Shown here in pieces: positions 30,920 through 58,086 of a stretch of DNA of 64,000 nucleotides (its first letter is position 1; each line of letters starts with the position of its first letter). Made by a program: the position numbers and the translations under genes. The notes beneath the pieces were generated by a model, which was given only the letters and a program-made list of their open reading frames with translations, made no database searches and was not told the DNA's origin. This DNA is from Octopus vulgaris (taxonomy: Eukaryota). Location of the stretch: NCBI GenBank assembly GCA_951406725.2, contig OX597816.1, positions 4,526,001 to 4,590,000 of the forward strand, written 5' to 3'.

Positions 30920-31440
30920 TCTTTCTCTTTACTTGTTTCAGTCATTTGACTGCGACCATGCTGGAGCACCGCCTTTAATCGAGCAACTCGACCCCGGGAC
31001 TTATTCTTTTGTAAGCCCAGTACTTATTCTATCGGTCTCTTTTGCCGAACCGCTAAGTGACGGGGACGTAAACACACCAGCATCGGTTGTCAAGCAATGC
31101 TAGGGGGATAAACACAGACACACAAACACATACATATATATATATATACATATATACGACAGGCTTCTTTCAGTTTCCGTCTACCAAATCCACTCACAAG
31201 GCATTGGTCGGCCCGAGGCTATAGCAGAAGACACTTGCCCACACATCATCATCGTTTAACGCCCGTTTTCCACGCTAGCATGGGTTGGACGGTTCGACCG
31301 GGGTCTGGGAAGCCAGGGCTGCACCAGGCTCCAGTCTGATCTGGCAGTGTTTCTACAGCTGGATGCCCTTCCTAATGCCAACCACTCCGCGAGTGTAGTG
31401 GGTGCTTTTTACGTGCCACCTGCACAGGTGCCAGGGGGGG
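30373..31440 (-). mobile_element. Nested D (30373-30862), SINE C (30918-31220) and D (31245-31440) cluster
   Basis: Each block matches other copies in the window. Confidence 0.88.
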
Positions 31441-31524
31441 GGGGGTCTGCCTCTTTTAATTAATCAAACTGCTCAAAATTAATTAATAAGCACCAAAATT
31501 CCAATGTGCTCAGATCCTAAACAT

Positions 31525-31655
31525 CAGGTCTCTCTCAGCTAGAAATACTGCAACGACCACAAAACAATACCAGTTCTCTCTCAGCCAGAAACACTGCAAT
31601 GAAAACAAAATACCAGGTCCCAGCTAGAAATACTGGAATGACAACAATACAATAC
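31525..31655. repeat. Three diverged tandem units of about 40-46 bp
   Basis: cagg/ttctctctcagc.agaaa.actgcaa.gac.ac repeated. Confidence 0.8.
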
Positions 31656-31783
31656 TTCAGTCCAATAGTTCTTGCGACTTTTAAGATTTATGGGGACGGA
31701 GGGGGTCCATAATTGTAGAAATTTCCATGTGTAGAACCAGTGAAAATTAGATATATATATTTACGAAGTCGAGACATATCTTC

Positions 31784-31863
31784 AGCTAGCAGGCTTCTGC
31801 TACTCTAGACTGATGATGGGCAAAGACCCTGAAACATGCGTGTCTCTAGATGCAGGCCTGGCT
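31784..31863 (+). ncRNA. Canonical full-length type I hammerhead ribozyme (core 31804-31850)
   Basis: tctaga-CTGATGA-t-ggg-caaaga-ccc-t-GAAA-ca-tgcg-tg-TC-tctaga; GUC site; stem I extends past a bulge (caggc..ctgc / gcag-gcctg). Confidence 0.9.
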
Positions 31864-32155
31864 GTGGGGTATTTGTCTCCCCTTCCTAAATATATAAGGA
31901 CACAGGAAATGTGTCGAAACCGACAGGAAGCGTCGATGCTTCCTAGGGCTAAACAGCGGTGGTGTAATCCCCTACTGTCACGTTAAGTTGACAGTATACA
32001 ACCATTACAAATTCGCAAACATTTTCCTGAAAATGCCAAAAAATAGAAGCGATGATGGGTTACTTAAACCAGAAATTCAGCTCATTTCCCCAATAATATT
32101 TCACAATAATAGAAGTTCCACCACGACCACCACATATATATATATATACATATAC

Positions 32156-55625: not shown

Positions 55626-55666
<41 letters not shown>

Positions 55667-56473
55667 GCAACATTCGTCCTAAACTAGGACTGCCATGTTA
55701 TGCTGGCAAACATTCTTTACTCCAAAGTACTCAGAGACTTAGAAGTCTCTGAGATTTGATTTAGAAGCGAAAGGAACGGTTGGGGACTCTACTGAGGGGG
55801 GGAAAAAAGGGGGAGGAAGAATTGAGGGGAAGGACTGGTGGGTGTGTTGGGGGACGTGGCCGGGTAGGGTGGCTGATTGATGATGAGGATGATGAGGATG
55901 TATTGATAACGAGTCTTTCTTTAATTAATCGTTGTCAGTGTTATCGTTATCCATGTTGGCATGAGCACTATCGTCGTCAACAGCAACAACAGCATCCTCC
56001 TCCTCCTCCTCATCATCATCATCGTCATCATCATCATCATCTTCATCATCCTCATCATCATCCTCATCCCCATCCTCATCATCCTCATCATCATCACCAT
56101 CATCATCCATATTGGCATGAGCACCATCGTTATCAACAGCAGTAGCAGCGTCATCATCATCATCACCATCACTGCCACCACCACTACCACACTCCCACCA
56201 TCATCATCATCCTCTTATCAGATGAATGTTATCAAGACTCCAACCTTTTGTCATTACTAATCTGGTGTTCGGAATATAACCCAGAATTTTGAGAAAATAT
56301 TTTAATTTAGATCACTTTAATCCTCCATGTTTCATATTTTTGCTGAAATACACGAATTTTGTTTCAATTAACTTATAAAATAATAAAGAATTTATCAAAA
56401 TAATTTTGTCCTTCATAAGCTGTTTTTAGAATCATCAATTAAAATAAAATACTGAAAGGTTTTAATTTAGACT

Positions 56474-57205: not shown

Positions 57206-57445
57206 GAGTCATTCTCTTTTGGTGCCTTATAATTTAACACAATCACTGATAAAATGTCTACTCATTTATTTTTCTAAAATTTTCTTTGCATCTTGAAACC
57301 TTTTCAATAGTTTTTGACCATTGTTGTTGAGAGTCAAAAACTATCGAAAAGGTTGCAAGACACAGCGAAAATTTTAGAAAGATAAATGAGTAGACATTTT
57401 ATCAGTGATTGTGTTAAATTATAAGGCACCAAAAGAGAATGACTC
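57206..57445. repeat. Fold-back with 113-bp arms and 14-nt loop
   Basis: 57206-57318 versus 57333-57445 are near reverse complements. Confidence 0.93.
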
Positions 57446-58086
57446 AGATATTGTTTTGAGCAGAGTAGGGGTGCTAGATTCCCTTGTTCAAAAATATAAG
57501 GACACAGATTGTGTCATATAGTCAGCTGGAGACGATGTCTCCTGGGGGTAAATTATAGTAACATTCATCCTAAACCAGGATTGCCATGTTATGTTGGCAA
57601 ACATTCTTTACTCCAAAGTACTGTTGCTGAATATCTCACGTTGTGAGGTTTACAAATAGTAATTTTCTGAAGTTACCTGTTGTAGCAATCAGTGGTTGAA
57701 CAATCACAAATGGGAAATAGTTGTGCTATGTTTCTAGCAGGGAAAATTCCTGTCTACTCTCTGCTGTCTCAATCAGATGGATGTTATGACGAGACTGTAG
57801 ATGTTGTGCAACTGCCACAACATTCTGGTGATTATCACCAAACACCAACTTTATATGAACCACAATGAGAAAGTTCTAGAAAATCAAATCACATGATGGC
57901 TTGGCACCGACTGGTCGCATAGTATACTGATCAGTCAAAACAACTGTGGTCTGATCCTGTTGTCTGCTTGGCTACCAAGTGATTCAGTTTCAAATCACCA
58001 CTACAGTAGCAAAATGTTGAGCTCCTTTCTATTCCCTTTAAGGGTTCAGATAATTCCTGAAAGTCAACACTTGTTAGACTGTTTTA

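Follow-up and report, generated by a model that had tools for sequence, protein, structure and literature searches.

Two sites in a 64-kb stretch of Octopus vulgaris DNA (hereafter the window, i.e., the whole of the stretch analyzed, 64,000 nt of contig OX597816.1) are almost certainly 5'-truncated copies of ~355-nt non-coding, non-LTR retrozymes with a type I hammerhead. The hairpins that follow the hammerhead take part in a fold common to at least six lineages of these elements, and we propose, with a probability of roughly 60%, that the domain composed of helices P2, P3, P5, and P6 is the signal at which the reverse transcriptase (RT) of a Penelope-like element (PLE) binds and starts copying. 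In these elements we see a hammerhead motif, tandem arrays, 5' truncation at random points, inverted 5' copies, 3' ends fixed at two positions, targets that are AT-rich, and a fold kept across lineages.

The first site holds a lineage A copy at positions 31738..32004 (boundaries drawn from 30 loci and from natural monomers; all retrozyme features of the window given here lie on the + strand) that ends at the short 3' end of the family. As the first-pass annotation had noted, it carries a hammerhead with a GUC cut site and, downstream, three hairpins. The hammerhead, of type I, was recognized from its sequence at 31804..31850; it has a 6-bp stem I, an intact core (31810-31844), a U.U at the base of stem II, and a short near-palindromic stem III, and the GUC^ cut is predicted to fall between 31844 and 31845. 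An Rfam search over 31700-32100 with E values up to 10 gave no match, the hammerhead of this copy included. The hairpin domain had been placed directly after the GUC; its hairpins are real, but it starts ~20 nt after the cut, with 31845-31863 still belonging to the hammerhead arm. The ggggt..ccctt..ataag stretch (31866..31896) is predicted from circular folds and pairing to be the 5' strand of a rod helix rather than a local hairpin, and circular folds and duplex energies pair it over a long range with 31751..31789. Hairpin P2 (31899..31915), defined by pattern matches and covariation, reads GACAC/GTGTC, with GGCAC/GTGCC in lineage E and GATAC/GTATC in lineage G. Hairpin P3 (31918..31953), defined by pairing tests, consists of a lower stem (RGCC/GGCT), an internal loop, and an upper stem (31926-31943), followed by AAA; the lower stem contains one mismatch in the A copy of the window. 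Further downstream lie the 5' strand of the long-range helix P5 (31957..31964), whose partner falls beyond the short end of this copy, hairpin P6 with an 8-nt loop (31976..31993; covariation and RNAalifold), and the first half of a 21-nt spacer (31995..32004), where mapped ends place the short 3' end and a putative RT start, site 1.

The second site, at 57.5 kb, contains a lineage B copy (57445..57668) that runs from just 3' of the hammerhead cut site to the long 3' end; lineage B likewise has a type I hammerhead, and the window copy begins 2-3 nt after the cleavage site. Its helices are P2 (57501-57515), P3 (57520-57552), P5 (57556-57563 with 57622-57629), P6 (57582-57599), and P8 (57633-57649). 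The order of elements and the stem changes originally described for this site were recovered in hairpins 57501-57515, 57528-57542, and 57582-57599. A short lineage B fragment, from the 5' strand of P5 to P6 plus the short end, lies at 55666..55731. Directly 5' of the B copy there is a 240-bp near-perfect palindrome (89%; 57206-57445), probably a MITE, and similar sequence occurs at two other loci (L044 and L051). The A copy has been duplicated within a larger unit, since 31244-32143, where this copy is preceded by ~500 bp of flanking sequence on its 5' side, recurs at 91% identity at another locus (L025, C27); a 46-bp tandem is found at 31528-31655. The window also contains two more minimal hammerhead-like cores (15528 and 19823), which are probably the ends of truncated PLEs, and is rich in microsatellites and SINEs, the latter presumably of the cephalopod type.

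Within the window, the alignment between the two sites is weak, at 73% over 66 nt with an E of about 0.01, and a first look at the genome returned 2,297 candidates for the family of the first site (lineage A) and 2,465 for that of the 57.5-kb site (lineage B). Across 2.8 Gb of genome, three patterns spanning the module gave 4,971, 7,785, and 7,158 matches against 0, 23, and 6, respectively, for the reversed-pattern controls. These searches exposed lineages C, D, and E/F plus many subfamilies, and lineage G and a degenerate lineage H were met beside Tx1 copies (see below). Lineages A, B, C, and D share 50-60% identity over the domain. Natural monomers measure 353-361 nt in 22 of 23 cases, the remaining one being 338 nt, and that of lineage A is 355 nt. 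In both A and B, what precedes the hammerhead on the 5' side is the 3' part of the element itself, so that the unit is a circularly permuted monomer. It has neither an LTR nor an ORF of its own: the flanks in which copies end are unrelated, and 5' of the hammerhead there is a repeat of the monomer. Tandem monomers were also found, in arrays of 8 units (L095) and, the longest seen, 12 units (C1:31.01 Mb).

With its hammerhead, tandem arrays, and monomer size, the element is indeed retrozyme-like, as had been suggested, and it falls within the sequence-level definition of a non-LTR retrozyme given in the available text of Cervera and de la Pena 2020 (PMC7229834) and of Li, Clavereau and Pollet 2026 (10.64898/2026.07.22.740005). 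As in the metazoan elements described there, a type I hammerhead with a short palindromic stem III occurs in a genome that also holds PLEs, and a non-coding monomer (170-400 nt there, 353-361 nt here) exists in dispersed and tandem copies and is predicted to form a highly self-paired circle. The portions of these two papers that were available to us report no covarying cross-family fold, two-end tail signature, or cephalopod family; the supplement of Cervera and de la Pena 2020 may list octopus elements. A literature survey confined to the papers themselves turned up no account of this family, nor of a retrozyme fold that covaries, and the words "ribozyme" and "retrozyme" are absent from the main text of an Octopus vulgaris repeat annotation. 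One metagenome pattern scan gave 0 matches.

A type I hammerhead core with three stems is present in lineages A, B, C, D, E/F, and G. Core position 4 is C in 22 of the 25 A copies listed, U3 occurs with G8 or A8 in the cores of C, E, and F, and in A and B stem II has a non-Watson-Crick pair at its base; a lineage D hammerhead scores 32.2 bits against RF00163, under the gathering score of 34. The hammerheads of PLE pseudo-LTRs (pLTRs; see Cervera and De la Pena 2014, PMC4209133) also have a palindromic helix III, and their U3-A8 core covariant is seen here in C2, C5, and E. Unlike those, however, the hammerheads studied here are full-size, have a long extended stem I, and are not beside an ORF. 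As for the module, no Rfam 15 family explains it: none reached gathering over it in the whole window or in 8 loci of other subfamilies.

The whole fold comprises the hammerhead arm, the rod, P2, P3, P5 enclosing P6 and the 21-nt spacer, and three further hairpins; in the rod, the GGGG..CCCTT..ATATA stretch is predicted to pair with sequence 5' of the hammerhead. The initial description was of a domain fused 3' of the hammerhead, whereas the predicted structures place its hairpins in a single fold that spans the ~355-nt monomer and of which the module makes up about 40%. Judged from aligned sequences, conservation of this fold by covariation holds in aggregate. In a MAFFT sequence-only alignment of 15 subfamily representatives, 95.1% of cells (385 of 405) are paired, and 13 of 27 pairs have changes on both sides. 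None of 500 shuffles, a control that ignores relatedness, reached the observed pairing, and slid registers gave 29-51%. One-sided pair changes are mostly G.U on the hammerhead strand. RNAalifold, unprompted, returned P2, P3, P5, and P6 on the alignment of 15 representatives. In addition, both sides change in 17 of 24 predicted pairs of a 22-sequence alignment, and the summed G statistic is 117 versus 48.6 +/- 13.0 (0/5000) when a partner is swapped for a real column of equal parsimony length. Pair by pair, however, a tree-based R-scape-like test found 1 of 29 scored pairs to be individually significant, so that the covariation claimed in the first-pass annotation stands in aggregate and, taken singly, for one pair only. 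Regular-expression parsing, which discards copies that do not fit, covered 11 of 15 subfamilies in the analysis of spacer length and all 15 in the per-pair test, there with a looser pattern and four changed references. All of these figures are to be read in the light of helices first seen in the same sequences that were later tested, a hand-anchored alignment that leans towards structure, and single dead copies that carry random damage.

P5 is paired in 100 of 105 cells (15 subfamilies) and in 8 of 8 pairs of lineage G, which was held out of the derivation of the model and forms every helix, with new compensatory pairs. The spacer is 21 nt long in all 11 subfamilies parsed with free length and again in G. 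For rod strand 31751..31789, the duplex scores -21.5 kcal/mol with the partner of its own lineage versus -10.7 kcal/mol across lineages, and own-family rod strands beat every other-lineage partner in 14 of 15 cases. Isolated stretches fold modestly (z of -2.7 for the first site and -1.1 for the second on the + strand; -4.1 for the - strand of the first site), and whole monomers folded as circles give z values from -2.9 to -10.2 (23 monomers, 12 shuffles each).

Several finer pairings and motifs that had been put forward are less general. The P6 loop YGTTAWGT is kept in A and B, as stated, but elsewhere it reads CATTCAGA (C), TATTGAAA (D), TATTGAGA (E), or TATTAATA (G); across lineages only the 8-nt length and Y-R-T-T are kept. 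The supposed kiss between cgac and loop gtcg is not conserved: five subfamilies were scored, giving duplexes of +0.9 to -2.4 kcal/mol, and the loop in B has 3 nt. Closure of a multibranch by gtggggtatt and aatcccctac can form in A (-10.4), and G-tract/C-tract pairing is possible in C (-8 to -11), but the folds of four full-length A circles (L002, L005, L011, and L014) pair the G-tract and CCCTT..ATATA in a long rod whose other strand lies 5' of the hammerhead, and the closure is unsupported in these models. Pseudoknots between loops and 3' segments, sought by eye, were not seen at homologous places.

The 3' ends of insertions fall into two classes, 45-75 and 100-126 nt after GGGCTAAA, which account for 136 of 143 distinct ends in the five lineages scored; the two sites lie ~50 nt apart (spacing 47-58 nt). 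The short end falls ~10-18 nt into the 21-nt spacer in A-E, with the exact base blurred by TA microhomology. Among 49 tail-out inverted insertions, 40 combine a long with a short end, 2 have two long ends, 1 has two short ends, and 6 have an end outside the classes (i.e., 40 of the 43 that can be classified have one end of each kind). The PLE tail signature is thus present in ORF-less retrozymes: a PLE tail usually occurs on one end only (Craig et al. 2021), and its source is a pair of internal RT starts located 3' of the hammerhead, as shown in vitro (Frangieh et al. 2024, PMC11167929). For the Poseidon PLE of Anolis (PAc), the latter authors propose protein binding within the first 172 nt of the ORF, around the starts. 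PAc and the present elements have in common a region after the hammerhead, two internal RT starts, and AT-rich targets, and in PAc this region is needed for insertion and both DNA strands are primed (PMC11167929). In PAc, however, the region is the ORF start of an autonomous element with a tail of 30-40 nt, whereas here it is non-coding and the spacing is 47-58 nt.

The 5' ends are scattered. Forty of 73 pattern-found copies cross the hammerhead site, 7 begin within 5 nt of it, and 26 start 3' of it, and 21 of the 73 are longer than one monomer; the template would therefore be a circle or an uncut multimer. Among the marks of PLE mobilization, 5' truncation, partial tandems, and inverted 5' copies were seen. 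TA repeats flank ends of lineages A (12 of 41), C (14 of 18), D (6 of 6), and E (2 of 8) but none of the 70 ends of B, and the rest are mostly AT-rich by eye. Lineage B (L031-L060 and others) never ends in a TA microsatellite, unlike most of C and D, and this contrast in targets may reflect different partner endonucleases. Given such footprints, we consider it very probable that the retrozymes are mobilized by PLEs.

We envisage the following course. The hammerhead, probably acting as a dimer, would cut multimeric transcripts, and the cut units would be ligated to circles. A PLE RT-endonuclease, itself probably a dimer, would bind the P2-P3-P5-P6 domain and cut AT-rich DNA, after which one DNA end would prime within the 21-nt spacer and the second would prime at a point ~47-58 nt more 3'. 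From there, reverse transcription would proceed through the module and then the hammerhead, in some cases going round several times. The mapped ends link P5/P6 and the spacer with the sites of RT start; they do not show that P2 and P3 bind the RT. RT recruitment, one of the three functions that had been offered for the module, has thereby gained positional support.

The same fold could be kept only to make a compact, nuclease-resistant circle with an inactive hammerhead, with the RT reading a short sequence near its starts. In keeping with this, every part of the monomer is predicted to be paired, rod and hammerhead arm included, and a high degree of self-pairing has been predicted for known animal retrozymes (Cervera and de la Pena 2020, PMC7229834). 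Stability alone, however, would not fix the P2/P3 sequence (GRCAC/GTGTC, GGCT), the 8-nt loop, and the 21-nt spacer across lineages that are 50-60% identical, nor would it put the start site at the same point of the spacer, and we regard this explanation as unlikely. Retrozymes also have to be transcribed by some route, and the analysis did not find one; instead of an RT site, the module might be an internal promoter or the site of a host protein (a ligase, an export factor, or a stabilizing factor). In favor of this are two conserved motifs, GGACAC and GGGCTAAA, and the TATA-like ATATAAG that occurs in A and B. A TATA-type promoter was rejected, as the motif is not conserved (ATATAAG is not kept in C or D), and the compensatory and G.U changes point to pairing in single-stranded RNA and not to a site in double-stranded DNA. 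A promoter or host-protein site thus appears quite improbable.

The multi-helix junction with conserved unpaired bases might also suggest a second, new ribozyme acting in cleavage or ligation, and GGCTAA is a word that we take to resemble HDV antigenomic J4/2. Likeness to HDV-like ribozymes stops at this word after a hairpin, and their nested double-pseudoknot topology was not found, in agreement with the first reading of the sequence: a loose descriptor of the HDV arrangement (P1/P2/P3/P1.1/P4, catalytic C in J4/2) fits 0 of 9 monomers at the conserved C of GGGCTAAA and elsewhere matched 0-2 times per monomer versus 0-3 times in shuffled sequence. That C pairs in the P3 lower stem in 60 of 60 cells, and its context changes in lineage G, where GGGCTAAA becomes GGAGCTGAC. 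No Rfam ribozyme besides the hammerhead was matched and no conserved pseudoknot was seen; twister and pistol gave no Rfam match and were otherwise compared by eye with their known topologies, which have two conserved pseudoknots in twister and one in pistol, together with core motifs. The earlier proposal of a new ribozyme thus finds no support and has, in our judgment, a very small chance of being right; on present evidence, this is not a new ribozyme class. Finally, the similarity could reflect shared repeat ancestry alone, the hairpins not being under selection, given that one pair alone is significant, that many both-side changes are double transitions, and that the copies, being dead insertions, are randomly damaged. 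This is opposed by the aggregate tests, the own-family preference of the rod strands (14 of 15), and the new compensatory pairs of held-out lineage G, and we give such an account scarcely any credence.

For the proposed RT signal, a partner was sought among PLEs with three PLE protein queries and two covariance models over the fetched loci. The module was not found in the pLTRs of five PLE families (L064 Neptune, L120 Hydra-like, L074-type, L192-type, and L197 Neptune), and the covariance-model matches in PLE loci are separate retrozyme insertions. Likewise, the pLTR homology reported for frog retrozymes in the available text of Li et al. 2026 was not reproduced in these five families. They are part of a PLE complement of >10,000 candidates per query, and most PLE diversity lies outside this view because the best matches of two queries are single young families. 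An autonomous Neptune-type PLE family likewise has the two-end pattern, with a 48-nt spacing and a short end also at CCTTAC; the shared short end is a hint only, since TA targets favor such ends. Two young Neptune-type PLE families (L064:2800-6100 and L197-L203) have minimal hammerheads and are inserted in TA repeats, the second with ends 48 nt apart. There is also a very young Hydra-like PLE family (L120:318-1490 and L201) with a 778-aa frame and 15,184 first-look candidates, the best 150 of which are at 97-100% identity; in its predicted hammerhead, core position 4 is C and stem II carries ~70 nt of inserted sequence.

The retrozymes are themselves the target of a 5.4-5.7-kb L1/Tx1-like LINE with APE-like, RT, and zf-RVT regions (Pfam RVT_1 and zf-RVT), which we take to belong to the Tx1 clade. 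Its copies sit in sense orientation at a single homologous position. This site is just 5' of the hammerhead arm, at a distance of ~55-65 nt on the 5' side of the hammerhead cut, and the junctions place it at about 31778-31793 of the window, inside the rod strand. The target duplication is ~15-19 bp long, and its variants match within each locus. A search with the LINE 3' UTR gave 41 matches, and 17 of the 30 loci examined run into a retrozyme at the homologous site (15 in A, 1 in D, and 1 in E); 3 of these 17 are the discovery loci, and two pairs may be duplicates. Two further loci run into lineages H (L218) and G. Tx1 insertions were recorded at L061, L062, L063, L204-L216, L223, and L227-L229. 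A 1.66-kb element that has a CCHC ORF1-like frame and terminates with AATAAA (L064:499-2160, - strand) is inserted at the identical retrozyme site and has the same duplication, and a Tx1 copy is inserted into a relative of this element (L219). Tx1-clade LINEs target other mobile elements, as with Tx1 in Tx1D and Tx1-Mar in Mariner-N4 (Kojima 2015, PMC4494074), and those cases share with the present one that a LINE has gone repeatedly into a single position of a different mobile element and has duplicated the target site. The targets given in the available text of that study are DNA transposons, LTR elements, snRNA genes, and microsatellites, whereas here the target is a retrozyme.

PLEs have been named as a candidate RT source for animal retrozymes (Cervera and de la Pena 2020, PMC7229834), and retrozymes have been linked to PLEs by pLTR homology (Li et al. 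2026, 10.64898/2026.07.22.740005). Here, ORF-less retrozymes carry a two-start footprint, and one of the starts lies inside a fold for which natural compensatory variants exist. We tentatively suggest that the retrozymes may have evolved a portable, protein-free RNA signal without a sequence counterpart in autonomous elements, one that would capture a PLE RT dimer and present a fixed 21-nt template loop between two helices, by analogy with telomerase RNA and TERT. If our proposal is true, this would be the first defined RNA element for PLE trans-mobilization, itself parasitized by a site-specific Tx1-like LINE. With a defined RNA, mutations, and candidate enzymes at hand, what a telomerase-related RT recognizes could be tested directly.
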